A stretch of 53,495 nt of DNA from an uncultured Bacteroidia bacterium (GTDB lineage: Bacteria; Bacteroidota; Bacteroidia; Bacteroidales; CAJPTX01): the NCBI GenBank assembly GCA_938040915.1, contig CALHZE010000233.1:1-53495 (forward strand). Reading direction: 5' to 3'. A program made the position numbers and the translations under genes. The notes beneath the pieces were generated by a model. It worked only from the letters and a program-made list of their open reading frames with translations, was not told the origin of the DNA and ran no database searches. This document shows positions 3,691-53,495 of the stretch, in pieces (position 1 is the first letter of the stretch; each line of letters begins with the position of its first letter).

Positions 3691-5937
3691 TTAGATACCC
3701 ACAATGGTGAAGTCTACACGACGGTTACGCGCACGCCCTTCCTTGGTCTTGTTAGACGCCTTGGGCTTATCAGGACCGTAACCCTTAGCTTGGAAGCGAT
3801 CCTTGCTAATACCTTGCTCGATAATGTACAGCGCGACAGACTTCGCACGCTCTTGCGAGAGGCGCTTGTTGGTTGCTGCGCTCCCGACATTATCGGTGTG
3901 ACCACCGATTTCCACCTTCACGTTCGGGTACTCTTGGAAGAACTCTACCAAGGCATTCAACGAACGGTAAGACTCTTCCTTCAGCTTACTCTTACCCGTT
4001 TCAAAGAAGATGTTTTCAATGTCGACAGACTGACCGATTTCAAGCGGGGTTACAAAGAAGTCTCTCATCACGGTTTCGCGTGGTTTCGCGTTACGCAAGT
4101 CGACTACCTCGAGCTTGTTATAGAAGTTGGGCACGCTTGGCACAAGGTCATAGTCTGCCCCAGGGAGAAGCTTCAAGCTATAGGTCGCATCGGCTGGGTT
4201 GTAGACGAAGGCATCAGAGATTTGCTTGTTCACACGCATCTTAGCAATGATGCCAGCCTCAAGCGGCTGCCCTGTCTTGGTGTTAATCATGCGACCGCGG
4301 AGGGTAACAAGATTGTCAAGCTTGGGTTTCGCCGGTACGTTCTGCGAGATCGTCCCATACTCGTTGTGCTGAGTCAAGTCCAGCTCGGTCGGGATAGGCG
4401 TATAGTCTGTCGCCTGTACCGAGAGGTTATACTTACGCCCGTAAGGCAAGTTGACTGAGTAGGACGAGCGAGCTGGGTCAAACTTGAGCGAATCACACGG
4501 CTTACCGTCAATCAGGAGCACGGGGTTGTTCTTCGCTGGGATCGCGGTCTGCGATAGGCTATTGGTCAAGATACCCGAGACATTGAGGTAGGGCAAGGTC
4601 CTGAAAGTAATTCGGATTTCATGCTCGCTATAGAGCTTGTGCCCCGTGACATCTACGACAGCCGTGTCAGAAGTGTAGTGCTGAAGGTTGGCGGTAAACT
4701 CATAGCGCTGCCCCAAGGGGAGGAGCGCAAAGAAGGTAGCCCCGTCCATAACCACAGAGTCGCTCGGCACGCCATTGATACGCACCTCAATCTCCTTGTT
4801 CGCGGGCATCAACTCGCCATTCTTTGCGTTAACAAGATACCCCTTGACCTGAATCCACGGACGTTCCTCAACGAGCATTACACGATAGATGTCAGACTTG
4901 CCATACGTTTCGCGGTGTGAGCAGAAGTAAGCGTATGTACCCGCTTTGTGGGGCGAGAAGTAGGAGTCCCAGAGTTGCGAGTTCACCGTGTCAGAGATCG
5001 GGTGGAGATCCTTCCACTCGCGCATCCCCTTCTTCTTGTTGACAGGGGCTACTGAGTAGAGCTTGGCGGGGTCTTTGTCGGTCTTGTTGCGGCGACCGCT
5101 GAAGTAGAGACGACCATCATACTCAGACAAGAAGGGCGACTCTGCATGATAGAAGTCTTCGAATGGACCCTTGAGCTGACGCGGCTTAGAATACTTGAGG
5201 ATGATGGGCTTATAGGTCTTTACCACTTTCTTCCCCGTGGTCGGATTGATCTGGACGCTGTCGTGCTCCTGGATCGAGTCTTGCTGAAAGAACTTCTTGA
5301 GTTGTAACGTATCCTTAATCTCAGCGACATACATCCGCAAGCGCTTGCTAGCCCAGCGGTTTGAGAACGACATAAAGATATACCGCGCGTCGGGGGTAAT
5401 CATGGCCGTAGCCAAATCGCCCTCGTTCTTCCAACTATACCACGGCATCTTGATACGGACGGGCGTTCCCCACGAGCCGTCTTTGTTCCGCTTAATCAGA
5501 GAGAAGCCTTTCCGCAGCCAATGTTGCCCAGGTTGGTCAAAGATACCCGAGATAAGGTAGGTCTTGCCATCAGCCAGCACGCCATGCATAGAGTTATACT
5601 GGGTGAGGTTGATCGAGTTGGGGAGACGCTCTGGGTCTGTCCAGCCGCCATCTTTCTTTTTGGTAGACATCCAAATATCTTGGGAGTCATACTTGTAGCG
5701 ATTTTCCGGGTGATTCATTCGCCCAAAGTAAAGCGTATCACCGGTGATCGAGAGTACGGGGTTTACCTCTGCATACTCTGAGTTGATAACCGCTCCCAAG
5801 TTTACAGGAGGGAACGACTGCGCCGCTGCACGCGAGGGTGCAAAAAAGGGCACAAAGAGGAGTCCTGCCAAAAGACTCCAAAGGACGGATGTATGGTTTC
5901 GATTGCGCATCGTGCCTAATACTTTACTGGTATTCAT
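3691..5937 (-). CDS. OmpA-family envelope protein with TolB-like PD40 repeats and CarboxypepD_reg-like domains
   Basis: 748 aa with a signal peptide. Has PD40-like repeats (INSEYAEVNPVLSITGDTLYF), beta-sandwich segments (VKGYLVNAKNGE..), and a C-terminal OmpA peptidoglycan-binding domain (NIFFETGKSKL..GGHTDNVGSAATNKRLSQERAKSV..NRRVDFTIV). Confidence 0.8.
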   Translation of the reverse strand: MNTSKVLGTMRNRNHTSVLWSLLAGLLFVPFFAPSRAAAQSFPPVNLGAVINSEYAEVNPVLSITGDTLYFGRMNHPENRYKYDSQDIWMSTKKKDGGWTDPERLPNSINLTQYNSMHGVLADGKTYLISGIFDQPGQHWLRKGFSLIKRNKDGSWGTPVRIKMPWYSWKNEGDLATAMITPDARYIFMSFSNRWASKRLRMYVAEIKDTLQLKKFFQQDSIQEHDSVQINPTTGKKVVKTYKPIILKYSKPRQLKGPFEDFYHAESPFLSEYDGRLYFSGRRNKTDKDPAKLYSVAPVNKKKGMREWKDLHPISDTVNSQLWDSYFSPHKAGTYAYFCSHRETYGKSDIYRVMLVEERPWIQVKGYLVNAKNGELMPANKEIEVRINGVPSDSVVMDGATFFALLPLGQRYEFTANLQHYTSDTAVVDVTGHKLYSEHEIRITFRTLPYLNVSGILTNSLSQTAIPAKNNPVLLIDGKPCDSLKFDPARSSYSVNLPYGRKYNLSVQATDYTPIPTELDLTQHNEYGTISQNVPAKPKLDNLVTLRGRMINTKTGQPLEAGIIAKMRVNKQISDAFVYNPADATYSLKLLPGADYDLVPSVPNFYNKLEVVDLRNAKPRETVMRDFFVTPLEIGQSVDIENIFFETGKSKLKEESYRSLNALVEFFQEYPNVKVEIGGHTDNVGSAATNKRLSQERAKSVALYIIEQGISKDRFQAKGYGPDKPKASNKTKEGRARNRRVDFTIVGI

Positions 5938-5951
5938 CTTCGGCGTCCTCC

Positions 5952-7352
5952 TTACTTTTGAGTCAACTGACTATTGGGGTAGAGAGGACCGATCACGATA
6001 TTCATCCCGATCCGCAAATTGGTAGCCTTAAGGTCAATGGGGTTAAGGAGACCATAGAGGTTGTCGGTGATGAGATAGAACTGGTAAGCGCCTGGGCTAA
6101 AGACGAGCGCACCCCCGAAATTGAGGAACGAGCGCTGATTGTAGCTCACGGCAAACTGCCCCGAAAAGAGCGCACTATAGCCCTGTTGGATAGACGCCGT
6201 AAAGGAAGGATAAACTTGCCCTTGGTGGATCGTCATCGCAGCCGAGAGACCTGCGTGGGTCTGACGCGCCAAGCGGTAAGTCCCCATAAGGTAAAACTTC
6301 GGAGAGAGCCAAGTGTTGTAAGACTCACCCTTAGTGTTCTGCTCGTCAAGATCCATATGAAATTGTTTCTTGAAGTTGTCGCTAGAGAGGAAATCCCAGT
6401 CCATCTTTTTACGGAAAAGGATGGTGTTAAAGCCCGAGAGACCCATCACCCACGACTGGTCTTCCTTGAGTTTTGCCTGCCCGAGGCCTTGTCCCCAGTG
6501 TATCATACCGAGGTCGGTAAAAGCAAAGGTAAAGCGGAAACGATTGTCCTGTGGAAGGATGTAGGTCGCAGCACCCGAAAGCGCAAAACCAGGGTTGGTA
6601 AAGTTGATATACGTCCCCACCTTCTTGTAGTCGGGGAGCTTGGGCTCGCCATTTTCGATCGGGAGACCCGAGGTGCGCAACACACCCTTTTGGTCAATGA
6701 TGTGAGCAAAACGCTTCTCATTCTCCTCGGTAATCGTAAGCCCTAGGTTATCTGCCACGAGATTCCCATTGACCGAACCGCCAAGGAAGGAGATACGCCC
6801 CCCAAAAATCCAGTCCTCATAAGGGTGTGAAGCGCCGAGGGTAAGCTCATTATAGTTGGTTACATCAAATCGGAGGTCGTTCATATCCAAGCGATTGCCC
6901 ACAAGCCACTTATTCCCCTCGACACCAAGACGCACAAGTTCTGTGGGGTAAACCAACGACTGGGTAGTCTGGTTACGCCACCCAAACCAGAAGAACCACC
7001 GACGCCACGCCATCCGGAAATGGAGGATGTCAATCCCCATTTCAAAATACTCTTGCGAGGTCTTGTAGTTCTGCATCTCCGAAGAGAGCTTGTCGGGCAA
7101 GAGAAAACGCGTCGAGCCTCGAAGTTCGGAGACCGAACGCAACGAGAAGGCGTTGTTAATCAACCCCACTTCGATAGAAGAAAGCACGGGTACGCCGATG
7201 CTAAAACGATGCATTGGGCGTACGGCCGCATTAGCCCAGCTCGACTGGAAAGCCAAGTCGTTGTAGGGCAAAAGCATCTGTGTTTGCGCCTTGACACCTG
7301 CAGCAGCCAAGAGCCCGAGGAAGGCGCACGCTAATAGTTTTTTCATATTCAT
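5952..7352 (-). CDS. Putative outer-membrane beta-barrel protein of unknown family
   Basis: 466 aa with a signal peptide (MKKLLACAFLGLLAAAGVKAQ). It is rich in alternating aromatic/Gly beta-strand patterns (YQFYLITDNLYGLL, LRIGMNIVIG). It does not show the PorP/SprF N-terminal motif I remember. Only 13-14 nt separate it from both neighbours. Confidence 0.5.
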   Translation of the reverse strand: MNMKKLLACAFLGLLAAAGVKAQTQMLLPYNDLAFQSSWANAAVRPMHRFSIGVPVLSSIEVGLINNAFSLRSVSELRGSTRFLLPDKLSSEMQNYKTSQEYFEMGIDILHFRMAWRRWFFWFGWRNQTTQSLVYPTELVRLGVEGNKWLVGNRLDMNDLRFDVTNYNELTLGASHPYEDWIFGGRISFLGGSVNGNLVADNLGLTITEENEKRFAHIIDQKGVLRTSGLPIENGEPKLPDYKKVGTYINFTNPGFALSGAATYILPQDNRFRFTFAFTDLGMIHWGQGLGQAKLKEDQSWVMGLSGFNTILFRKKMDWDFLSSDNFKKQFHMDLDEQNTKGESYNTWLSPKFYLMGTYRLARQTHAGLSAAMTIHQGQVYPSFTASIQQGYSALFSGQFAVSYNQRSFLNFGGALVFSPGAYQFYLITDNLYGLLNPIDLKATNLRIGMNIVIGPLYPNSQLTQK

Positions 7353-7365
7353 TGTCGCCTCAAGG

Positions 7366-9093
7366 TTATTTCTTCTTACCGAAGTCGTCTCCCATCTTTA
7401 TCAAATCACTCGGCTTGCCGTATGCTTTGACATCTACAGCCACCTGTAAAAGGACGTTGTCGTCTTTCTTTACCCGCACATTCTTGCCCTCTGGGGTGAT
7501 AAAATAGTAGGTCGTACGGAGGGTTTTCGCATTGTTCGAGAGGTTCTCATACTGTTCCTTGGTCATCTGGTGCACATGTTCGCGGAAAGCAGGCTTATCC
7601 ACTCGCCCTTCGCCATTGACCTCACCACACGGGATGAAGAGATTCGCCCCCTCTTGCGCCTTACCGCCCTCATTGTTTATTGTGAGCTCCATCACCTTGT
7701 TCTTTGCTTTATCCAAGAACTCGAGCTTCGCATAACCGTCCATCGGGAGCGTGTTGAGAATGCCGATATGCAAGGCAATCGCCTGATCAATCCCCGCCGT
7801 ATTATCCTTGTTCTGGAGATAATCAGAGGCGTCCTTAGGGAATGTGTTGTCTGCGAGCTTCATCTCTGCGAGCATCTTGCTCGTCTTCAACATCCCGTAG
7901 AAGGGGATGCGCACCTCCATCTCATAGACGATCTTGCTGTCTAGCGGGAGGGGTTCATCATTTTGCGAAATACCCGTGTTCTCTAAAGCAAGCGCAACGT
8001 TAGAAACCTTCAGATCAAACAGAGCATTCCCGAAGATGTCGGCGATGTTCGAGTTCGAATTATTGAGAATAAACGTCTTCGACGCAGCATCTCCTAAGGA
8101 TTGCTCAGCCCCCCCAATCAAAAGGCTCTTACCCTTTTGTTCCTCAGAGAGCGCATCCAGATTTTGATTAACCACGTTGATTGGCGCTGGACTGTCTTCG
8201 CGGATTTCACTCGGGACAGCTTCTATCTTCGCCACAGATAACTTAGCAGGGGTCTTTGGGTCTTTGCTCACGCGTATCAACACTGACGACTCGGGCAAGT
8301 TGGCCTTTGCGACACGCATAGAAGAAAAGATATCAATCTTACGCGAGAACGAAACGACCGTCTTCGACGACGTGTTGAGCTTCGTATGCCCGATAGCTTC
8401 CTTGAGGATGAGGTTCATAAAATTGACCCCCACAGAGAGCTTTACCTTTTTGCTTCCCGCCGGTGCACCAACGACCTCTAGGTCAGAGACCATAAACGGA
8501 CACTTGTTATAGTAGGTTCCGTCATAAAATTGGAAACTCCGCCCCGATTTAATTTCCTCGGTAATATCAATCTCACCCTCTCCGTTGGCGGGGATGGCAA
8601 ACTCCTTGGTAATCGGCGTCGTGGGGTCTTGCCACGTGATTTTACCCTTGACTTGCGTCGCGTCAGCGCTCTCTGCCTTAGCGGTAATGACGATTTTGAA
8701 CTTATCAGCACTCCTAAACGAAACCTGCTTGACCTCACGAGCTGGTAAGATCTCCCACGGGAAAGCATAAACCTGAGAGGTCGTAGACTCTACGTCGATG
8801 TCTTGCGAATAAACGCCTGGTTTCAGGGTAACGCGGGAACTAAGCCCATGGCTCTCGATCTCTTGTTTGTCCCGATAGACTGCCACACAGGTTCCATCCG
8901 CTTCATATTCAAACGACGTGTGTTCCTGCTCGCGCGTCAACAGCTGTTCTACGCGGAGGGTATCTCGCAACACGGGTAGAATAAACTCCGGACGGATGGG
9001 GTCTACCTCCATATCCATCACGTCCTTATAACAGGAAGTGGCTCCCAAGAGCACCCCTCCTGCTAATAACCAAAAGGCTAACCTTTTATACAT
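7366..9093 (-). CDS. Lipoprotein of unknown function
   Basis: 575 aa. Signal peptide plus lipobox-like LLGATS-C (Cys21). I recognise no family motif. It is the first gene of the three-gene operon. Confidence 0.55.
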   Translation of the reverse strand: MYKRLAFWLLAGGVLLGATSCYKDVMDMEVDPIRPEFILPVLRDTLRVEQLLTREQEHTSFEYEADGTCVAVYRDKQEIESHGLSSRVTLKPGVYSQDIDVESTTSQVYAFPWEILPAREVKQVSFRSADKFKIVITAKAESADATQVKGKITWQDPTTPITKEFAIPANGEGEIDITEEIKSGRSFQFYDGTYYNKCPFMVSDLEVVGAPAGSKKVKLSVGVNFMNLILKEAIGHTKLNTSSKTVVSFSRKIDIFSSMRVAKANLPESSVLIRVSKDPKTPAKLSVAKIEAVPSEIREDSPAPINVVNQNLDALSEEQKGKSLLIGGAEQSLGDAASKTFILNNSNSNIADIFGNALFDLKVSNVALALENTGISQNDEPLPLDSKIVYEMEVRIPFYGMLKTSKMLAEMKLADNTFPKDASDYLQNKDNTAGIDQAIALHIGILNTLPMDGYAKLEFLDKAKNKVMELTINNEGGKAQEGANLFIPCGEVNGEGRVDKPAFREHVHQMTKEQYENLSNNAKTLRTTYYFITPEGKNVRVKKDDNVLLQVAVDVKAYGKPSDLIKMGDDFGKKK

Positions 9094-30362: not shown

Positions 30363-32279
30363 ATGGAACGAAGCAGAGACATCATCGTAATTGGCGGCGG
30401 ACACGCGGGTTGCGAAGCCGCCTTGGCAGCGGCTAGTTTGGGCGTCAATACGCTCCTTATTACAACCGACATTACCAAGCTAGGTGTAATGAGTTGTAAC
30501 CCCTCAATCGGGGGGATTGGTAAAGGGCAGATCGTGCGCGAGATAGATGCCCTCGGGGGCTTTACCGCACAGTGTACGGATCTTACCACCCTTCAATTTC
30601 GGATGCTCAACCGCTCTAAGGGAGCAGCTATGCATAGCCCTAGGGCACAGTGTGACCGCGATCTCTTTAGTCTCACGTGGCGGAGAAAGTTAGAGGGGGC
30701 GACCAACCTAGCGATCATTCAAGACACAATTGAGGAACTCTTGTTAGAGGAACATGAAGGGAAGACGCTGTGTGTAGGCGTAAGATCAAAATTGCGCGGC
30801 GATATAGTCGCCCAACGCGTGATACTTACCGCCGGTACCTTCCTTAACGGACTCATCCACGTGGGGATGTATCACACCCCAGGAGGTCGCATCGATGAGA
30901 GCGCCGTGCCACGCCTCACCGCACAGTTAGTAGCTCACGGCATAAAAGCCGCACGATTCAAGACAGGCACTTCGCCGCGGATCGATCTCCGGACGATAGA
31001 TTTAGACGTCTGTCGCATACAGGCGGGAGACATCGAAGGAGGACACTTTTCCTACTCCACCACGTGCCCTTCCCCCCTCCCCCAACGCCCGTGCTATATC
31101 ACAGAGACGAACCCAGAGACCCACGCGATCTTACGCGCCAATCTCAATCGCTCCCCCCTTTTTCAACACGTGATACAGGGACGCGGACCGCGCTACTGCC
31201 CTAGTATCGAAGATAAGATTCACATTTTCGCAGACAAAGGCTCACACCCCATATTCCTAGAGCCAGAGGATAGCGAAGGCAACACCGTCTACATCAATGG
31301 ATTTAGCACCTCGCTTCCGTATGATGTGCAAGAGGTGGGGCTTCACTCAATACGCGGTTTAGAGGAGGCACACATCATCCGTCCAGGCTATGCGATCGAG
31401 TATGACTATTTTGACCCCTTGCAATTGGAACATAGTTTAGCCTCGAAGGTAATCAGGGGGCTCTACATCGCGGGTCAGCTCAACGGCACAACGGGGTATG
31501 AAGAGGCTGCCGCACAAGGACTATTAGCAGGGATCAATGCCGCACACACCTTGCTCGGGCGCACGCCCATTGTCTTGCGGCGCTCAGAGGCTTATATAGG
31601 TGTGATGATTGACGACCTCGTCACCAAGGGAGTAGACGAACCCTACCGGATGTTTACCAGTCGCGCTGAGCACCGTCTTTCGCTTAGAGAAGACAACGCA
31701 GACGAACGTCTTTACCAGCTATCTGTAGCGATTGGGTTACGGAGCAAGGAAGCTTTAGAAAAAACGGCGACAAAATATGAAACTGTAACCGCCTTGGCGC
31801 ACTACCTGACACAACTTTCGCTCACGCCCGAAATGGTGAATGAATACCTCTTAGCACAGGGGGGCACTCCCCTCCCCCAAGCCATCAAAGCGCATAAACT
31901 TCTTTTACGTCCCGAAGTTAAACTAGCGTCACTGCTTCCCCATATTCCCACCACAGCATTTGACAAAAGCACACTCTCTGCAGAGATAGTCCACAGCGCC
32001 GAGACGCGCATCAAGTATGCTAGCTACATAGAGAAAGAGGAACAGGAGAGTGAACAAACGTTGAAGATAGACACTATACACATCCCCGACACGCTAGACT
32101 ACACAACCCTAGAGAGTATTAGCATTGAGGGAAGACAGAAACTCCGTCAACACCGCCCCAAGACCTTAGGAGAGGCAAAACAGATACCCGGCATCAAACC
32201 TAGTGACCTAAAGGCGATCTTGATAGCGATGCGTTCGTTTGTTCCACGTGGAACAGTGGAAGGGACAGAGGATAAATAA
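30363..32279 (+). CDS. mnmG: tRNA uridine 5-carboxymethylaminomethyl modification enzyme MnmG (GidA)
   Basis: 638 aa. FAD motif IVIGGGHAGCEAA, then SCNPSIGGIGKGQIVREIDALGG, GPRYCPSIEDK, GQLNGTTGYEEAAAQG. The last 13 codons overlap parS site 1. Confidence 0.95.
   Translation: MERSRDIIVIGGGHAGCEAALAAASLGVNTLLITTDITKLGVMSCNPSIGGIGKGQIVREIDALGGFTAQCTDLTTLQFRMLNRSKGAAMHSPRAQCDRDLFSLTWRRKLEGATNLAIIQDTIEELLLEEHEGKTLCVGVRSKLRGDIVAQRVILTAGTFLNGLIHVGMYHTPGGRIDESAVPRLTAQLVAHGIKAARFKTGTSPRIDLRTIDLDVCRIQAGDIEGGHFSYSTTCPSPLPQRPCYITETNPETHAILRANLNRSPLFQHVIQGRGPRYCPSIEDKIHIFADKGSHPIFLEPEDSEGNTVYINGFSTSLPYDVQEVGLHSIRGLEEAHIIRPGYAIEYDYFDPLQLEHSLASKVIRGLYIAGQLNGTTGYEEAAAQGLLAGINAAHTLLGRTPIVLRRSEAYIGVMIDDLVTKGVDEPYRMFTSRAEHRLSLREDNADERLYQLSVAIGLRSKEALEKTATKYETVTALAHYLTQLSLTPEMVNEYLLAQGGTPLPQAIKAHKLLLRPEVKLASLLPHIPTTAFDKSTLSAEIVHSAETRIKYASYIEKEEQESEQTLKIDTIHIPDTLDYTTLESISIEGRQKLRQHRPKTLGEAKQIPGIKPSDLKAILIAMRSFVPRGTVEGTEDK
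32240..32255. promoter_or_regulatory. parS: parS-type ParB binding site 1 (TGTTCCACGTGGAACA), inside the 3' end of mnmG
   Basis: Perfect 16-bp palindrome matching the TGTTNCACGTGAAACA parS family, with a symmetric G/C change. Confidence 0.75.
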
Positions 32280-32292
32280 AGTTTCCCCCCTT

Positions 32293-32308
32293 TGTTCCAC
32301 GTGAAACA
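32293..32308. promoter_or_regulatory. parS: parS-type site 2 (TGTTCCACGTGAAACA)
   Basis: Identical to the B. subtilis Spo0J parS sequence as I recall it. Confidence 0.75.
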
Positions 32309-32337
32309 AGAAAGGTGTGAGTAAAATAAATAGAGGT

Positions 32338-32353
32338 TGTTCCACGTGGAACA
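32338..32353. promoter_or_regulatory. parS: parS-type site 3 (TGTTCCACGTGGAACA)
   Basis: Perfect 16-bp palindrome. Confidence 0.75.
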
Positions 32354-32555
32354 AAGGAAGGTATCAGAACCTCAAATAACGAGGGCATTACATTCTCCTT
32401 CCCTACACAACCACCTTTTAACGATTAAGGTCTCTAGAAAGGCGTATCTCTATACTACGCTACAGAAGATAGGAGTAAGAGTTTACTACTTATCTGATAA
32501 AAAAATGAGTGGCACTGAAACAAGAGGAAGGGTGGGGAAAATAAGGCATAAAATC

Positions 32556-32571
32556 TGTTCCACGTGGAACG
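32556..32571. promoter_or_regulatory. parS: parS-type site 4 (TGTTCCACGTGGAACG)
   Basis: 15 of 16 positions match the majority form. Confidence 0.65.
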
Positions 32572-32602
32572 AAGGGAAACAGAAAGGATAGATAAGAAAA
32601 CG

Positions 32603-32618
32603 TGTTCCACGTGGAACA
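32603..32618. promoter_or_regulatory. parS: parS-type site 5 (TGTTCCACGTGGAACA), 24 nt upstream of the uvrC ATG
   Basis: Perfect 16-bp palindrome. Confidence 0.75.
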
Positions 32619-32641
32619 GCGTTAAACGAAAATAAGCGGGG

Positions 32642-34459
32642 ATGGAACTCAAAGACGAACGCTATGCGGGGATTAAGGAAACCGTACAAATGCTCCCCCA
32701 CGTACCTGGAGTATATGTCTACAAGAATGCACAGAAAAAGATTATCTACATTGGGAAGGCTAAAGACCTACATAAACGCGTGCAGTCTTACTTCACCAAC
32801 ATAGAGCGACATAATGCCAAGACGCGGATACTGGTCAATCAGATAGCGTTTATCGATTTCATCATCGTCAATACCGAGGAGGAGGCCTTCTTGTTAGAAA
32901 ACAACCTTATCAAGAAGAACCAACCAAAGTATAACATCCTGCTCAAAGACGACAAGTCTTACCCTTGGGTCTGTATTACCAAAGAGGAATACCCGAGGGT
33001 ATTTCTAACACGCAACTACATTCCACGGAGAGGGAAATATTACGGTCCCTATCCCTCGGGCGGAGCAATTGATTCGGTACTCGCCACCCTACGTCAACTC
33101 TTTTTCTACCGAACCTGTAAAATGCCCATGACGCAAGCGTGGGTAGAGGCGCGAAGATATCGCGCCTGCTTAGAATACCACATCCACAACTGTCAGGGAC
33201 CGTGTATCAATGCCATTAGTAAGGCAGAGTATAACCGCGCTATAGAGAATATCGGCAATATTTTGAGTGGTAAGGTAGGGAGTGTCATTGCCACCTTACA
33301 ACGAGAGTATCGCGAGGCTCTCGAGCACCTTCACTTTGAGAAAGCCGAGGTGCTCAACAAGCAAATCGAAGCCCTGCAAGATTACCAGAGTAAGAATAGT
33401 GTCTTAAACCCCGAGGTGGGCGATTTAGATGTGATTACCATCCTCGAGCGCGAGGATCGCGTAGCGCTCAACTATATGCATATTTACAACGGTGCCGTCG
33501 TCCTCTCTATCAATCGCATCGTATCAAACCCACTTGGTAACTCATTAGAGGAGCTCTTAGAGACGGTCGTCTACCGACTCAAGGAGGAGTTTGGCAGCGA
33601 AGCCTCTACCCTGTTATGCAACCTAGCGCTCCCCTCCCCTATTCCTCCCTACAAGCAAGTAGAGTTACCACAGCGTGGCGATAAGCACAAAGTTCTTTTA
33701 CTCTCGACACTCAACACCGAGCGCTATCTTGAGCAAACCACAGCGCGCAGACAACTCCCCACCGAAGAGGCAATGTTGCAACTCCAGCGCCTCTTAAAAC
33801 TCCCCCGTCTGCCTCGCCACATAGAGTGTATAGACAACTCTAATACGCTGGGGACTTACCCCGTCTCCGCAGTGGTAGTCTTCATCGATGGGAAGCCGGC
33901 TAAAGAGCTTTACCGGATCTATAACGTAAAGACCGTTGAGGGACCTAATGATTACGCTACCATGGAAGAGATCATCACACGGCGTTACGAAGAAATGCCA
34001 TCCGAGGAGCTTCCAGACCTTTTGGTGATAGATGGAGGAAAGGGGCAACTGAGTTCCGTACAAGACGCACTGATGCGTATAGAGCGCATCACCGACATTC
34101 CGCTCGTAGGGCTCGCTGAGCGTATGGAGGAGCTCTATGTTCCACGTGGAACAGCGCCGATACGGTTGAGTAAAGATGCCCCCAACCTACGCCTCTTGAT
34201 TCAGATGCGTGACGAGGCGCATCGTTTTGGGGTAAAGCACCACACCCACCAGAGAGACAAAGACGTAAAGAACGTCCGGCTATTGGAAGTAAAAGGCGTA
34301 GGGGAAAAGAGCATCCAGAAACTCTATCAACAATTTGGCAGCAGACAAGCCATTCTTTCAGCAGGTCTCGAAGCCATAGAATCTTGCCTAGGAAAGAGTA
34401 AAGCCTCCTTGGTGTGGAAAGCATTAAAGGAAGAAGAAAGAGAGAAGAGAACACCCTAA
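32642..34459 (+). CDS. uvrC: Excinuclease ABC subunit C
   Basis: 605 aa. GIY-YIG domain (PGVYVYKNAQKKIIYIGKAKDLHKRV..N), the UvrC central region, an RNase H/Endo V-like domain (IECIDNSN..), RDEAHRFG, and a C-terminal HhH (VKGVGEKSIQKL). Confidence 0.95.
   Translation: MELKDERYAGIKETVQMLPHVPGVYVYKNAQKKIIYIGKAKDLHKRVQSYFTNIERHNAKTRILVNQIAFIDFIIVNTEEEAFLLENNLIKKNQPKYNILLKDDKSYPWVCITKEEYPRVFLTRNYIPRRGKYYGPYPSGGAIDSVLATLRQLFFYRTCKMPMTQAWVEARRYRACLEYHIHNCQGPCINAISKAEYNRAIENIGNILSGKVGSVIATLQREYREALEHLHFEKAEVLNKQIEALQDYQSKNSVLNPEVGDLDVITILEREDRVALNYMHIYNGAVVLSINRIVSNPLGNSLEELLETVVYRLKEEFGSEASTLLCNLALPSPIPPYKQVELPQRGDKHKVLLLSTLNTERYLEQTTARRQLPTEEAMLQLQRLLKLPRLPRHIECIDNSNTLGTYPVSAVVVFIDGKPAKELYRIYNVKTVEGPNDYATMEEIITRRYEEMPSEELPDLLVIDGGKGQLSSVQDALMRIERITDIPLVGLAERMEELYVPRGTAPIRLSKDAPNLRLLIQMRDEAHRFGVKHHTHQRDKDVKNVRLLEVKGVGEKSIQKLYQQFGSRQAILSAGLEAIESCLGKSKASLVWKALKEEEREKRTP
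34138..34153. promoter_or_regulatory. parS: parS-type site 6 (TGTTCCACGTGGAACA), inside the uvrC coding sequence
   Basis: Perfect 16-bp palindrome, read as Y-V-P-R-G-T-A in the uvrC frame. Confidence 0.7.
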
Positions 34460-34480
34460 GAAGAGACCTCTAACGCCATT

Positions 34481-34541
34481 ATACACAACGCCGCGCGACT
34501 ATAGAGTTTTCACTGCTGTATAGTCGCGCGGCGTTGTGTAT
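34481..34541 (+). terminator. 23-bp perfect-stem hairpin 22 nt after the uvrC stop (terminator-like, no U-tract)
   Basis: ATACACAACGCCGCGCGACTATA (34481-34503) pairs with TATAGTCGCGCGGCGTTGTGTAT (34519-34541), leaving a 15-nt loop. It is followed by CTTTCC rather than a T-run. Confidence 0.45.
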
Positions 34542-34582
34542 CTTTCCAAAGGAGTAACCTTCCCTATATTCTATTTTCTTTT

Positions 34583-34598
34583 TATTCCACGTGGAACA
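34583..34598. promoter_or_regulatory. parS: parS-type site 7 (TATTCCACGTGGAACA)
   Basis: 15 of 16 positions match the majority form. First unit of the tandem array. Confidence 0.65.
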
Positions 34599-34663
34599 CG
34601 TCTTCTCCTTCTTAGTTTCTCATTACTCAGGGTAAAACGATATTCTCTATTTATCTACCTCTT

Positions 34664-34679
34664 TGTTCCACGTGGAACA
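34664..34679. promoter_or_regulatory. parS: parS-type site 8 (TGTTCCACGTGGAACA)
   Basis: Perfect palindrome; second unit. Confidence 0.75.
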
Positions 34680-34745
34680 CGCCTTCGTCCTTCTTAGTTC
34701 CTCATTACTCAAAGTAAAACGACATTCTCTATTTATCTACCTCTT

Positions 34746-34761
34746 TGTTCCACGTGGAACA
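34746..34761. promoter_or_regulatory. parS: parS-type site 9 (TGTTCCACGTGGAACA)
   Basis: Perfect palindrome; third unit. Confidence 0.75.
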
Positions 34762-34826
34762 CGTCTCGTCCTTCTTAGTTTCTCATTACTCAGGGTAAAA
34801 TGATATTCCCTGTTTATCTACCTCTT

Positions 34827-34842
34827 TGTTCCACGTGGAACA
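34827..34842. promoter_or_regulatory. parS: parS-type site 10 (TGTTCCACGTGGAACA)
   Basis: Perfect palindrome that closes the array, 59 nt from the ruvB stop. Confidence 0.75.
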
Positions 34843-34900
34843 TGCATTCGCGCTCTGATAATCCTTGCTCTTTTCTTTCGCTCACATTAAGCACGCAGGG

Positions 34901-35902
34901 CTAGCCCCCCCACAAGCTAGAATAGTCAACTCCAAGGTGTTCGTAAGCAGTCGAGGTTGCAACCCGTCCGCGCGGCGTGCGCTTGAGTAAGCCCTCCATG
35001 ATAAGAAAGGGCTCGTAAACCTCTTCGATCGCCCCCGCATCCTCCCCTACCGCAGTTGCCAAGGTAGAAAGCCCAACAGGTCCCCCGTTAAATTTCGCAA
35101 TAATCGTAGAGAGAATACGACGATCCATCAAGTCTAAACCACGACTATCTATGTTGAGGGCGTCGAGAGCCAAACGCGCAATCTCTAGGTCAATCTCGCC
35201 ATTACCCTTTACTTGCGCAAAATCGCGCACGCGGCGTAATAGCGCATTCGCTATACGCGGCGTCCCACGACTCCGCGCCGCTATCTCTTGCGCGGCTTGC
35301 GTATGTATGGGGATGCGAAGAATCCCTGCCGAACGCTTTAAGATCGCTTGAATCGTCGCATTAGGGTAATACTCTAAAAGACACGAAATGCCAAAGCGCG
35401 CCTTGAGGGGCTTGGTCAGTAACCCCACGCGCGTGGTTGCCCCCACCAAAGTAAACGGATTGAGTTGAAGTTGTACACTCCGCGCCGCAGGACCCTTCTC
35501 TATCATGATATCTATGGTAAAATCTTCCATAGCCGAATAGAGGTACTCTTCCACCACAGGAGCAAGGCGATGGATCTCGTCAATGAAAAAGACTGTCCCT
35601 TTTTCTAAACTCGTAAGTATCCCCGCCAAATCACCAGGACGATCAATGACCGGTCCACTCGTCATCCGTAACGATACCCCGAGCTCGTGGGCTAAAATAT
35701 GTGCCAAAGTAGTTTTGCCTAAACCAGGAGGACCATGAAAGAGCACGTGGTCGAGGGGCTCGCCGCGTAATTTAGCAGCCTCCACAAAAACGTGAAGATT
35801 GTCCATCACTTTACTTTGCCCAGTGAAATCGGCAAAGCTTAACGGACGTATCGAACTCTCGACCTCTTCGCTTTCGTCTTGCCTATACTCGCGATCTGCC
35901 AT
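34901..35902 (-). CDS. ruvB: Holliday junction branch migration ATPase RuvB
   Basis: Walker [10 protein letters not shown], Walker B FIDEIHRL, sensor [23 protein letters not shown]. The track ORF starts at TTG 35932; ATG 35902 (MADREYRQ..) is more likely. Confidence 0.95.
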
Positions 35903-36314
35903 TCTACCTTCTTGAGTTTTGCTCGTTTTCAAACCCCTTTCTTCCTATCACCTTCTTCTTTTAAGAAAAAGAAAGAAGGTAGTTAGATAGGCTGTTCATT
36001 ATGTTTATAACCACGGCATAGGGGTATAGCGCCGTGGAAAAAAGGAGGGGAAGGGGCTTGCGAACTGATGTGGGAAAGTTACTGAAAAATAGGAGCTTAA
36101 TAGCGCTATTGAGAGTCTTTTCTAAGAGCGCCGCGGGGGAACGGAGTGAGCTCGTGGGGGTGTCTATAATTTGGGTCATTTCGTTGCAGTAAGAAGATAC
36201 GCTATTGTTCATAAAACAAGGAAAGGCGATAACGTGCAACTTATCGACACAACACTAAGACAACAAGGGGGCGTTTATAGACAAGTTGTGAACAGTTTAG
36301 ACTCGTGGCGCTCA

Positions 36315-37241
36315 TTACTCGTTGATAATTGCCTCGATGAGCCAAAGCGCATCATTTTCTAGCTCGGTGCGGCGCTTATTCATATCTCGGATGCCGCTTT
36401 TCTTGTCATAATACTTTCCCAAGGTCACGCGATACATCCCGTTGATCTTTCGCACCGTCGGTGTATACCCTTTTTGACGCAGCTCGCGTTCGAGCTTGTT
36501 GGCGTTTTCTATGCTAGAGAAGCTACCGGCTACGATAAAGAACACGGTATTTCGTTGCGGCTCTGGCTGCATTCGGAGGGCATTGACTTGCCGGTGACTG
36601 CTGTCAAGGGCTTGTTGGGTCTCCTGTAGCGTGAGGGTGGTGTCGAGCGGTGGAAGTGTGGGAGTGAGCAGGCTATCTTTCTTTTGCGTGGGAGCATTCG
36701 CCGCTTGACGTTTTTTGAATTGTGTGGGCGAGGCAAGAAAATAGGTCGCGATAATCCCGCCCCCTGCCACTAGCCCACAGATGAGCGCCACGACCCCGAG
36801 ATTGGTGCGGCGCATTTTCCGTTTACCAATCCCCTTGGCTTTGGGGAGTAAAAGTGGGAGTAACGGATTGCGCGTAAGGTGAAGCTCCCCCCCCTCCCCT
36901 ACCAATTGCAGAAGCCTTCCCTCTTTATGGAGCGTCCCCACGCCTTGAAAGTGAATCTTTTCGCCTCGCTCTATGCGTCCTCGCAGGGTTTCCAGCCAGC
37001 GCGCTAAGATTTTTTCTACTTCTTCGGGGGGGAGTGTGCTGTGGCTACGCAGATAACCTAATAGTGCTTCGTCGTCAAACTTCCGCTCGTTGGAGAAACG
37101 AAGTAGATGGGTCGTGGGAAGAAGCTGACCTTGCGCATCAAGGTGCGCCGGACGCACCTCGCGTACGAAACTCCCGATCCCTGGAAGACTGACGTACTGC
37201 TCCTGCAGCAAAACATACTGGACACACTCCTCTATCTGCAT
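36315..37241 (-). CDS. SPOR-domain protein with an HU-like N-terminal domain and one TM segment
   Basis: 308 aa. N-terminus: YVSLPGIGSFVRE.. / IHFQGVGTLHKEG (HU-fold-like pair). TM segment: LGVVALICGLVAGGGIIATYFL. C-terminal SPOR domain: VFFIVAGSFSSIENANKLERELRQKGYTPTV..YRVTLGKY. Confidence 0.6.
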   Translation of the reverse strand: MQIEECVQYVLLQEQYVSLPGIGSFVREVRPAHLDAQGQLLPTTHLLRFSNERKFDDEALLGYLRSHSTLPPEEVEKILARWLETLRGRIERGEKIHFQGVGTLHKEGRLLQLVGEGGELHLTRNPLLPLLLPKAKGIGKRKMRRTNLGVVALICGLVAGGGIIATYFLASPTQFKKRQAANAPTQKKDSLLTPTLPPLDTTLTLQETQQALDSSHRQVNALRMQPEPQRNTVFFIVAGSFSSIENANKLERELRQKGYTPTVRKINGMYRVTLGKYYDKKSGIRDMNKRRTELENDALWLIEAIINE

Positions 37242-50677: not shown

Positions 50678-53495
50678 ATGAGAAAACGGAATTTACACAG
50701 ACTCCTGCTCTTTTGCACTCTAGCTCTCTTGTTCTCGCTCTGGATGGCTTCGGCGATGGCAGCGCAATACGAACTGTATATTGCCGGAGAGCCGGTGACA
50801 GATGAAAATTGCAAAGACCTGAGCAAGCTTGGTAACTTTGAGTTTATAGATATTACCGAAGGAGGCGAATTTAGCTACAACCCTAAGGAAAATATCCTAA
50901 AGATGAGGGGGGTGAACTTAGGGACAAAAAACTTCAATGCTATAGAAAATGGTATAGAAGGCTTGACCATCGATATCTCTGGAGAAAATGGTATGCTTGG
51001 AGGAAAATCTGCCTTCTTAGGAATTAGCGTAAACACAATAATCAAAGGGGACGGTATGCTCAATTTGCAGAGCTTTCCACCCTCTGCGATACTTATTGGA
51101 GCTAACTCGACCTTGACCATCGATCGCGTAACCATGAATTTAGAAGCAAGGCTGAGCGCTGCCATTTCTGGGCAAAACGGGACGTCTGGTGAAAAACTTG
51201 TTATCAGGAAGGCAAAGGTCAATGCTAGGGGAAAGGATGCAGCTATTGCCAACCTATCTCATTTGGAACTAGATCATTGCCAGATCCTAGAGCCTGTTAA
51301 GGGTAGGTTTCATCGCAACAAGCACGGCATCGTGGGGGAGGATGAAAATCTTGTAAATGAGGTGCATATAGCTCCAGGCGATTACCCCCTCACTATTGCC
51401 GGTGTGAGGGTGACCGATCTCAACCGCGACGACCTGATGAGTGCTATCCCTGGGGTGAATGTCGCTCCGGACGGAATATTCGAATTTGGGAAAGTAGGGA
51501 ATGCCTGTCTCTTGATCATGAAGGGGGTAGAACTCGCCTACGATGGTGGTAATGTCATTGTCTGTGACGGAGCAACCCCCATCGCTATTACCAACTTGGG
51601 TAAGAATAAGATTACTGCCTCAAAAGGTAGTGTGTTGGTCGCAAACGCCGTGTTTGTAGAAGGGTCGGGCGAGCTGGAGCTAGAAGGAGGAAAAGACTCT
51701 CCATGCATAGAAACCGATAGCTTTGGAATAGAGGGGGTTACCCTTACGGTCAACGGCAAATGGGGGATCGTAGGGAAGGATGCCCAAAGTGCGCAATTTG
51801 CCATCCAAAATGCTACCGCCTATATCCATGGGTCTGAGTTTGCTATTGGAAAGTGTAACCAATTTGCTTGGGTCGGAGGCGAGCTTGTAAAACCCGCAGG
51901 CGGTAATTTTGATACAGATAAACATGCCTTAGTAGCGAGCGATGGGAGCTTGGCAAAGGAGGTAGAGATTAAGGCTACGGAGTATAATCTGACCATTGCA
52001 AACGAGACAGTGACAAAGGAAAATTGTGCAGACCTGAGTCAAATTGCTCCAGGAGTTGTGGAGGTCGCCCCCAACGGCGTCTTGAAATACGACCACGACA
52101 CGAAAACCCTGACCATGAAAGATGTGAAGATCACAATGCCTGCGCAGCCGTTACTCCTTAGCAAAATAGACGGGCTTACGATCAACCTCTCTGGTGTCAA
52201 TACGCTGCAGGCAACTGGCGGCAGTGGACTTGCTTTTTTGGCTAGCACTTCGATCGAAGGCGATGGGACGCTTTCTGTGGAGAGCTTGCGTTCTGGAGTA
52301 GAGCTGAGTCGCTATAGCACACTGACTCTCTCTGGGATTACATTCAAAACCACAGGAGAGATCGGGATTGATGCTGAGCCGCATCTTGTAACGGCAAAAC
52401 TGGTGATTCGCAACGCTAAGGTGCAGATTAAGGGGACTCGGGGGGCAATAGCGAACTTGGCACAATTGGAGTACGACGGTCAGATCGTAAAGCCTGAGGG
52501 CGGCAAGTTTGACGAAAAAGAACACAGCATTGTGGACAAAGACGGCGCATTAGCCACGGAGGTCGAGATTGCCCCCGTGAAGGTCACAGGAGTAACCCTC
52601 GATCAGTCCACCCTCGCGCTCACCGTGGGCGGCGAAGCGAAGACCCTCACGGCAACCGTATCGCCCGACAATGCCACCAACAAGGCGGTAACGTGGACAA
52701 GCGATAAGCCCGCAGTAGCAACGGTAGCAGATGGTAAGGTCACACCCGTGGGCGCAGGCACGGCGACCATTACGGTAACGACCGTGGATGAGGGCAAGAC
52801 GGCAACGTGCACGGTGACGGTAACGGAAAATGCTGGTAGCGTAGCGGTCACAGGAGTAACCCTCGACCAGACCACCCTTGCGCTCACCGTGGGCGGCGAA
52901 GCGAAGACCCTCACGGCAACCGTATCGCCCGACAATGCCACCAACAAGGCGGTAACATGGACAAGCGATAAGCCCGCGGTAGCGACGGTAGCAGATGGCA
53001 AGGTCACACCCGTGGGCGCAGGCACGGCGACCATTACGGTAACGACCGTGGATGAGGGCAAGACGGCAACGTGCACGGTGACGGTAACGGAAAATGCTGG
53101 TAGCGTAGCGGTCACAGGAGTAACCCTCGACCAGACCACCCTTGCGCTCACCGTGGGCGGCGAAGCGAAGACCCTCACGGCAACCGTATCGCCCGACAAT
53201 GCCACCAACAAGGCGGTAACGTGGACAAGCGATAAGCCCGCAGTAGCAACGGTAGCAGATGGTAAGGTAGCACCCGTGGGCGCAGGCACGGCGACCATTA
53301 CGGTAACGACCGTGGATGGCAGCAAGACGGCGACGTGCACGGTGACGGTAACGGAAAATGCGGGTACTATAGTGGTCACAGGAGTAACCCTCGCCCCAAC
53401 CACCCTTGCGCTTACTGTGGGCGGCGAAGCGAAGACCCTCACGGCAACCGTATCGCCCGACAACGCCACCAACAAGTCGGTAACATGGACAAGCG
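50678..53495 (+). CDS. Large secreted/cell-surface protein: signal peptide, three ~200-aa homologous modules, then at least 3.5 Big_2 (bacterial Ig-like) domains; the 3' end lies beyond the window
   Basis: Edge-truncated ORF missing from the track. Hand translation from ATG 50678: MRKRNLHRLLLFCTLALLFSLWMASAMAAQ / YELYIAGEPVTDENCKDL.. / YPLTIAGVRVTDLNRDDL.. / YNLTIANETVTKENCADL.. / then repeated VTGVTLDQ(S/T)TLALTVGGEAKTLTATVSPDNATNKAVTWTSDKPAVATVADGKVTPVGAGTATITVTTVDEGKTATCTVTV. No stop codon up to nt 53495. Confidence 0.8.
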   Translation, partial: MRKRNLHRLLLFCTLALLFSLWMASAMAAQYELYIAGEPVTDENCKDLSKLGNFEFIDITEGGEFSYNPKENILKMRGVNLGTKNFNAIENGIEGLTIDISGENGMLGGKSAFLGISVNTIIKGDGMLNLQSFPPSAILIGANSTLTIDRVTMNLEARLSAAISGQNGTSGEKLVIRKAKVNARGKDAAIANLSHLELDHCQILEPVKGRFHRNKHGIVGEDENLVNEVHIAPGDYPLTIAGVRVTDLNRDDLMSAIPGVNVAPDGIFEFGKVGNACLLIMKGVELAYDGGNVIVCDGATPIAITNLGKNKITASKGSVLVANAVFVEGSGELELEGGKDSPCIETDSFGIEGVTLTVNGKWGIVGKDAQSAQFAIQNATAYIHGSEFAIGKCNQFAWVGGELVKPAGGNFDTDKHALVASDGSLAKEVEIKATEYNLTIANETVTKENCADLSQIAPGVVEVAPNGVLKYDHDTKTLTMKDVKITMPAQPLLLSKIDGLTINLSGVNTLQATGGSGLAFLASTSIEGDGTLSVESLRSGVELSRYSTLTLSGITFKTTGEIGIDAEPHLVTAKLVIRNAKVQIKGTRGAIANLAQLEYDGQIVKPEGGKFDEKEHSIVDKDGALATEVEIAPVKVTGVTLDQSTLALTVGGEAKTLTATVSPDNATNKAVTWTSDKPAVATVADGKVTPVGAGTATITVTTVDEGKTATCTVTVTENAGSVAVTGVTLDQTTLALTVGGEAKTLTATVSPDNATNKAVTWTSDKPAVATVADGKVTPVGAGTATITVTTVDEGKTATCTVTVTENAGSVAVTGVTLDQTTLALTVGGEAKTLTATVSPDNATNKAVTWTSDKPAVATVADGKVAPVGAGTATITVTTVDGSKTATCTVTVTENAGTIVVTGVTLAPTTLALTVGGEAKTLTATVSPDNATNKSVTWTS
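52583..53495 (+). repeat. Near-identical 264-bp (88-codon) tandem repeats encoding Big_2 domains; about 3.5 copies in the window, and the array continues off the end
   Basis: Repeat starts (GTCACAGGAGTAACCCTCG) lie at 52583, 52847, 53111 and 53375, exactly 264 bp apart. Copies differ at only a handful of positions. Confidence 0.95.

Follow-up and report, generated by a model that had tools for sequence, protein, structure and literature searches.

The 53,495-nt stretch analysed here (the window; GenBank assembly GCA_938040915.1, contig CALHZE010000233.1) comes from an uncultured Bacteroidia bacterium and carries ten 16-bp palindromes of the parS type, the recognition site of the partition protein ParB, clustered around uvrC directly behind mnmG (gidA). 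Judged from the sequence, these palindromes are very probably functional parS sites which together make up the partition centromere of the chromosome in an uncultured Bacteroidia species of the human mouth. An earlier note on this DNA had put forward the same partition-centromere reading, and it is now supported by the identity of the palindromes to experimentally used parS sites, by selection acting at the DNA level, by the phylum-wide adjacency of parS to mnmG and by site pairs lying beside open reading frames (ORFs) with ParB motifs in other phyla. We regard the centromere as real but essentially ordinary, a local amplification of an mnmG-adjacent position common to most Bacteroidota.

A dense parS cluster around uvrC

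A mismatch-tolerant search of the window with TGTTCCACGTGGAACA (≤2 mismatches) revealed ten matches, all carrying at most one mismatch and all lying within 2.6 kb (Table 1), which reproduces exactly the coordinates and sequence variants given in the earlier note; dinucleotide shuffles yielded 0.00 expected matches. Seven of the ten are perfect TGTTCCACGTGGAACA palindromes, and the variants are found at 32293 (TGTTCCACGTGAAACA), 32556 (...AACG) and 34583 (TATTCC...). The palindrome fits the chromosomal parS consensus TGTTNCACGTGNAACA, and TGTTCCACGTGGAACA itself is identical to parS2 and parS3 of Pseudomonas aeruginosa (PMC4368675). The copy at 32293, described earlier as letter for letter the Bacillus subtilis parS, indeed equals the optimal form of that species (PMC8299390).

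When the window was searched with TGTTNCACGTGNAACA at up to three mismatches, no further site was found anywhere in the 53.5 kb, bearing out the earlier statements that no copy lies elsewhere and that the cluster is not a product of chance. Same-species contig extensions (~7.5 kb on the left and ~7 kb on the right) contained zero sites at ≤2 mismatches, and the window and extensions together (~68 kb) have no parS outside the cluster. Half-sites of the form GTT[CT]CAC showed no enrichment, with six outside the cluster versus ~12.5 expected for the whole window. Within the ~68 kb of genome examined, parS is thus rare and concentrated in one region; the suggestion that a single locus holds most or all matches stands for this fraction, i.e. 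the window and its ~14 kb of extensions. In other, independent assemblies of this species from metagenomes the layout recurred with 10 or 11 sites, which indicates that the cluster is not an assembly artefact.

The cluster begins, as had been claimed, in the last codons of mnmG, the identity of which was confirmed by Pfam. Sites 2–5 and a decayed relic occupy the 362-bp mnmG-uvrC spacer, so that uvrC has parS sub-clusters on both flanks and one site inside; the downstream sub-cluster is the regular tandem array of four sites described earlier, for which Tandem Repeats Finder (TRF) gave a period of 81 bp. The relic is also present as described, reading GTGGCAC-TGAAACA followed by AGAGGAAGGG, and an intact site at this position was found in no strain compared. 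The two coding-embedded sites (32240–32255 and 34138–34153) share one reading frame, so that MnmG and UvrC both contain [F/Y]-V-P-R-G-T; given three possible frames, this agreement may be a coincidence.

Table 1. Features of the parS cluster and the genes around it, in window coordinates.
Feature	Position	Strand	Sequence	Remarks
parS-1	32240..32255		TGTTCCACGTGGAACA	Anchor site in the mnmG 3' end, codons F626-V-P-R-G-T631 of 638
parS-2	32293..32308		TGTTCCACGTGAAACA	B. subtilis optimal form; position 12 is G in other strains
parS-3	32338..32353		TGTTCCACGTGGAACA	
Decayed parS relic	32510..32522		TGGCAC-TGAAACA	Purine-rich flank like that of intact units
parS-4	32556..32571		TGTTCCACGTGGAACG	Perfect form in strain L085
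parS-5	32603..32618		TGTTCCACGTGGAACA	Starts 39 bp before the ATG of uvrC
parS-6	34138..34153			Anchor site in uvrC, codons Y499-V-P-R-G-T504
parS-7 to parS-10	34583, 34664, 34746, 34827			Cores of the 81-bp tandem array
81-bp tandem array	34581..34850			3.3 copies, 89% matches (TRF); spacer of convergent uvrC and ruvB
mnmG (gidA)	30363..32279	+		Pfam GIDA (E=5.5e-147) plus C-terminal domains
uvrC	32642..34459	+		Pfam UvrC_RNaseH_dom, GIY-YIG, HHH_5
26-bp inverted repeat	34481..34541			96% complementary, 9-nt loop; just 3' of the uvrC stop, before the parS array
ruvB	34901..35932	-		Pfam RuvB_N, AAA_lid_4, RuvB_C; convergent with uvrC; right boundary of the cluster

Comparison with known systems revealed likenesses as well as differences. 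The P. aeruginosa sites parS1–parS4 near oriC share with the window the 16-mer, the clustering and the placement of some sites in or beside genes, but these four sites extend over kilobases and form no tandem array. In B. subtilis, ten single sites are dispersed over the origin region, whereas the window packs ten into 2.6 kb, including the four of the 81-bp array. Sites inside coding sequences also occur in B. subtilis, e.g. within spo0J. The density reported in the earlier note does exceed that of B. subtilis but is not exceptional, since 22 parS sites lie between 9108251 and 9111304 in Myxococcus xanthus (~3.05 kb; PMC3899335), a consensus array denser than that of the window, and since three loci among the listed matches of the pair scan described below (L170, L175 and L182) hold 10 sites in 0.8–2 kb; a Muribaculaceae MAG (metagenome-assembled genome) listed there has 7 sites in 1.8 kb. 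The M. xanthus cluster differs in lying ~4 kb upstream of parA, while the window shows no parAB within ~68 kb, and in that ParB binding was demonstrated there by electrophoretic mobility shift assay (EMSA), whereas the window sites are predicted from the sequence. The tandem array further recalls sopC of the F plasmid (12 x 43 bp), in which head-to-tail units each carry one 16-bp palindromic ParB/SopB site, as do the 81-bp units (x 3.3) of the window. However, sopC is a plasmid centromere with another recognition sequence beside its own sopAB, whereas the window array is chromosomal and has the chromosomal parS consensus; its housekeeping synteny and the absence of an adjacent parAB set it apart from plasmid-type tandem centromeres (sopC/parC-like) beside their own parAB.

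Selection on DNA and linkage of parS to mnmG

Closest to the window are the genomes of seven uncultured 'Bacteroidia' MAG species, whose UvrC is 63–86% identical to that of the window, the next relatives being only 40–47% identical. MAGs of the clade include CAJPTV01, CAUUCP01, CAJPTC01, CAUTNK01, CBDEMG01, CAUVMY01 and CAJPTS01. Comparison of the mnmG-uvrC-ruvB locus in related genomes, proposed earlier as a check, showed that seven related MAG species retain two anchor sites, in the last codons of mnmG and within uvrC, and synteny is fully conserved in the seven nearest ones (patatin ... ybeY-mnmG-uvrC / ruvB-SPOR). Selection on the uvrC site was examined in a codon alignment of seven genomes, the window and MAGs L001–L006 (65–86% amino-acid identity). 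Only 8% of the codons for invariant amino acids kept the same third base, which indicates that synonymous sites of uvrC are essentially saturated. In this alignment the 14-nt parS core GTTCCACGTGGAAC is invariant in 7/7 genomes and constitutes the longest invariant run of uvrC, the next longest being 5 nt. At parS-6, UvrC of this clade alone reads V-P-R-G-T, the translation of parS, whereas more than 55 other Bacteroidota have [FYTK]-P-[GEDN]-D-[PSQ], indicating that the protein was altered to carry the site. A collection-wide scan of 185,579 GTDB species representatives found the uvrC codon context with parS in exactly seven, all of them from this clade. Taken from these alignments, purifying selection on the DNA of the uvrC-internal site across seven related species is supported.

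The parS in the mnmG tail is likewise invariant in the clade (L001–L006), with variation at the flanking synonymous positions, and L018 and every clade MAG have a site orthologous to parS-1. Conservation at orthologous positions is accompanied by selection at the DNA level, and the cluster accordingly has two ancestral anchors, in the mnmG C-terminal codons and in uvrC codons 499–504, which are held by selection on the DNA itself.

The linkage of parS to mnmG was then followed in 80 Bacteroidota mnmG loci (46–52% identity, ±4 kb) taken from among the matches listed, a sample that does not include the clade MAGs. A parS site (≤1 mismatch) lies within 600 bp of mnmG in 64 of these loci, downstream only in 33, upstream only (in the ybeY-mnmG spacer) in 15 and on both sides in 16. 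In many cases the site overlaps the final codons of mnmG, and most of the sampled loci have one to three sites. The order mnmG-parS-uvrC(-parS) recurs in some other Bacteroidales, namely L018, L110 (Ca. Aphodosoma) and L121 (Ca. Enterocola). No ParB box motif was detected within ±4 kb of mnmG in any of the 80 sampled loci (0/80), which differs from P. aeruginosa, where the gidAB-parAB operon is itself origin-linked (PMC13438810). Because parS adjoins mnmG across the phylum without parAB, the window cluster is an amplified local form of a conserved Bacteroidota position: it shares with the other loci the mnmG 3' end and/or the ybeY-mnmG spacer and the same site variants, and differs from them in its ten sites, its intragenic uvrC site (confined to the 7-species clade) and its 81-bp array. 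No parS was found near mnmG in the four Saprospiraceae sampled (4/4; L217, L250, L256 and L257) or in the endosymbiont Blattabacterium (L240), in which either the centromere has moved or ParABS has been lost. We found no description of the mnmG-parS linkage in Bacteroidota in the literature searched, outside which the parS survey of Livny et al. (2007) falls, and priority is uncertain. We regard as modestly new the phylum-wide mnmG-parS linkage without parAB, the intragenic site overwriting a UvrC motif and the strain-variable array.

A second scan, for two parS sites 20–50 bp apart, returned at least 120 loci from many phyla, and about 50 among the matches listed include mnmG. ORFs with a ParB motif (Box II-type) within the 8-kb block accompany 45 of the 120 loci listed, and the sole Bacteroidota label among those 45 is L104, which is probably misbinned. 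This contig (JAMPBI010000072.1, 'Alistipes sp.' MAG) carries a Firmicutes-type mnmG-rsmG-x-parA-parB block, and its ParB was for that reason dropped as a query for Bacteroidota ParB. Conversely, L185, L228, L272 and L029 are labelled Limnohabitans, Lachnospiraceae, Ruminococcaceae and Ruminococcus, yet display a Bacteroidota-type HATPase-ybeY-mnmG or uvrC synteny; these four contigs and L104 seem to be misbinned.

The distribution of the sites bears on two other explanations. That the palindromes are operators regulating mnmG, uvrC or ruvB, bound by a non-ParB helix-turn-helix protein or by a ParB paralogue acting solely as a repressor, with no centromere involved, appears highly improbable. 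Two sites do stand 39 and 86 bp before the uvrC start, in a region that must contain a promoter, and in P. aeruginosa ParB at parS3 and parS4 represses the neighbouring promoters (PMC5521831). However, the palindrome has precisely the sequence of the pan-bacterial parS, such sites lie beside parB in other phyla (among the pair-scan matches listed), several sites are located within genes and in the spacer between two convergent 3' ends, where operators are implausible, and the phylum-wide partner is mnmG, on either side, rather than one promoter. We give still less credence to a selfish or mobile repeat family, similar to miniature inverted-repeat transposable elements (MITEs) or repetitive extragenic palindromic (REP) elements, or to a remnant of the partition locus of an integrated plasmid or integrative and conjugative element (ICE). 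The sites are repetitive, palindromic and variable in copy number, as such an element would be, but zero copies occur elsewhere in ~68 kb, the positions are fixed and orthologous in seven species and across the phylum, the context (ybeY-mnmG-uvrC-ruvB) is purely housekeeping and syntenic, and Pfam scans of the window found no integrase, relaxase or plasmid genes.

Amplification and copy-number variation

Beyond the two anchors, the eight remaining sites of the window are lineage-specific additions which arose by local and tandem duplication. Within the clade, L003–L006 have two sites, L001 three, L002 eight and the window species 10–11. A more distant relative, L007 (UvrC 47% identical), has five parS sites 210–480 bp apart within longer repeated units, all located in its uvrC-ruvB spacer of ~2 kb (5264–7236); no mnmG was found within the 3.5 kb upstream of its uvrC, where the contig ends, and its centromere seems to have been kept with uvrC/ruvB rather than with mnmG. 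The differing counts across the clade and L007 indicate that amplification is recurrent and lineage-specific. Array copy number also varies by strain, with 4 or 5 units (five sites in L082), and two assemblies break inside the 81-bp array.

Comparison of the upstream units revealed that the 16-mer is 95% identical among them, whereas the adjacent 24 nt are 34% identical (random expectation 28%). Conserved cores in randomised flanks indicate that each core is preserved separately instead of being just a recent copy. Polymorphism within the species affects 2/80 parS columns versus 34/348 spacer columns, and the changes in parS concern positions 5 and 12, where the consensus has N, or positions 2 and 16 towards the ends of the site.

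We consider it unlikely that only the mnmG-tail and uvrC-internal sites are functional and that the other eight are neutral by-products of slippage or unequal recombination at a recombinogenic palindrome and its flanks. Such an origin would agree with counts that differ among strains (4 or 5 array units) and species (2, 3, 8, 10), with the decay of one unit, with the youth of the 81-bp array units (89% matches) and with the sufficiency of a single parS for segregation in P. aeruginosa (PMC4368675). It accounts poorly for the older upstream units, whose cores have stayed nearly identical in flanks close to random, and for the confinement of polymorphisms in the sites to consensus-tolerated positions; moreover, the independent amplification in L002, L007 and many other taxa suggests a recurrent advantage.

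As to the source of the units, a 14-nt unit-internal match (ACTCAGGGTAAAAC) links the downstream array of the window with the upstream cluster of L002 (E=7e-4), showing that units moved or were converted across uvrC. A common derivation of all units from the mnmG tail, with the two sub-clusters inverted, was not adopted and is a weak possibility only. With parS masked, the test for an mnmG-tail origin left only a 10-nt match (ATAAATAGAG, E=0.2), and in the test for inverted sub-clusters the ungapped flank identity of 0.36 versus 0.17 in the control orientation can be explained by purine-strand composition.

Partition model and genomic context

As in the established pathway of ParABS, each palindrome would be recognised by a ParB dimer whose gene lies elsewhere in the genome; the dimer would bind CTP, close as a clamp and slide outward over mnmG, uvrC and ruvB. 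With ten such loading sites in 2.6 kb, there would be one dense, high-occupancy ParB-DNA partition complex, which ParA would segregate and which may recruit a complex that aligns the chromosome arms. Loading of condensin by ParB at the cluster, an idea drawn from analogy, is speculative, and so is a modulation of the uvrC promoter by ParB through the two sites upstream of the uvrC start.

Several observations weigh against the centromere reading. Neither ParA, ParB nor DnaA was found in the window (Pfam, 38 ORFs) or in its ~14 kb of extensions, the window has no DnaA-box cluster (11 scattered matches versus 8.2 expected), and it shows no single GC-skew switch, the sign changing several times. 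The Bacteroidota B. caecimuris and M. intestinale, studied by Hi-C, have no recognisable condensin (PMC10197239), and a role of SMC rests on analogy. The eight non-anchor copies, moreover, could partly be neutral products of slippage and duplication, one unit (32510–32522) having decayed.

In Bacteroidota, ParABS homologues have been found and parS clusters at the secondary diagonal's crossing point in Hi-C maps (PMC10197239). Six-frame translations of the window and of all uvrC loci contained no ParB Box-II/helix-turn-helix motif, and no SMC gene is present in the window. The gene rnpA, which in many phyla is a classical neighbour of dnaA and oriC, lies ~5.5 kb beyond the left end of the window (L287 460–909); together with mnmG itself it provides weak hints of origin proximity.

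The annotated genes of the window are all chromosomal housekeeping genes (aro genes, pheS, fumC, mnmA, ybeY, dut, ispD, arginine-pathway genes and others), and the window proteins recur on contigs labelled human oral metagenome. The left extension carries rnpA, hemD, aroB and a type ISP restriction enzyme, and the right one Big_2 surface proteins. The inverted repeat behind uvrC is probably a strong terminator, and since it is located on the uvrC side of the array, read-through from ruvB would cross the entire array before reaching it. An RNA element at the cluster was rejected: no Rfam family matched in the window, and the terminator-like predictions at the cluster are the palindromes themselves.

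A minus-strand gene at 36315–37241, which lies 1.5 kb away from the parS array and keeps its synteny with ruvB across the whole clade, encodes HU-like domains (HU-CCDC81_bac_1 and Bac_DNA_binding) fused to a C-terminal SPOR domain (septal peptidoglycan-binding). From its domains, the product may be a DNA-to-septum tether beside the centromere, perhaps worth attention.

Further features lie apart from the cluster. A 264-bp tandem repeat (52582–53495, 3.5 copies, 95% matches) extends as far as the window's end. In a longer contig of this species (L290 11483–17476) it is part of large plus-strand Big_2 (bacterial Ig-like) repeat proteins, and the window and several assemblies appear to end within it. 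A 290-aa minus-strand ORF at 52603–53475 is probably spurious. At 7366–9093 on the minus strand, a 575-aa ORF without a Pfam match stands beside DUF5723 and OmpA-family genes and differs among strains (L288, L289): one assembly has a version of 560 aa, another a split one (305 + 262 aa). Its product may be a variable surface protein. In one strain, a type ISP restriction-modification gene (N6_Mtase + Type_ISP_C; L287 3686–6820) is located just left of the window.

A broader proposal, which we hold tentatively and think doubtful as a whole, is that a phylum-wide centromere is anchored to mnmG rather than to parAB and is here evolving fast by tandem amplification, with strain-variable copies, sites in the mnmG and uvrC frames and an overwritten UvrC motif. 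The array might then be a loading platform for the chromosome-arm-aligning machinery of Bacteroidales, in which no condensin is recognisable, or might couple ParB occupancy to the expression of uvrC and ruvB.

If the centromere reading holds, the locus would give an uncultured Bacteroidia lineage of the human mouth a concrete centromere, useful for placing the origin region in MAGs, for interpreting metagenomic Hi-C and peak-to-trough growth rates and for designing ParB chromatin immunoprecipitation (ChIP) and EMSA experiments. The comparative results are more useful: mnmG is bracketed by parS in ~80% of the sampled Bacteroidota with parB not nearby, and a DNA-repair gene can keep a centromere site within it so firmly that a conserved protein motif is overwritten. 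The general view of ParABS systems is left unchanged, and the mnmG linkage and the uvrC site add to it clean examples of selection at the DNA level.

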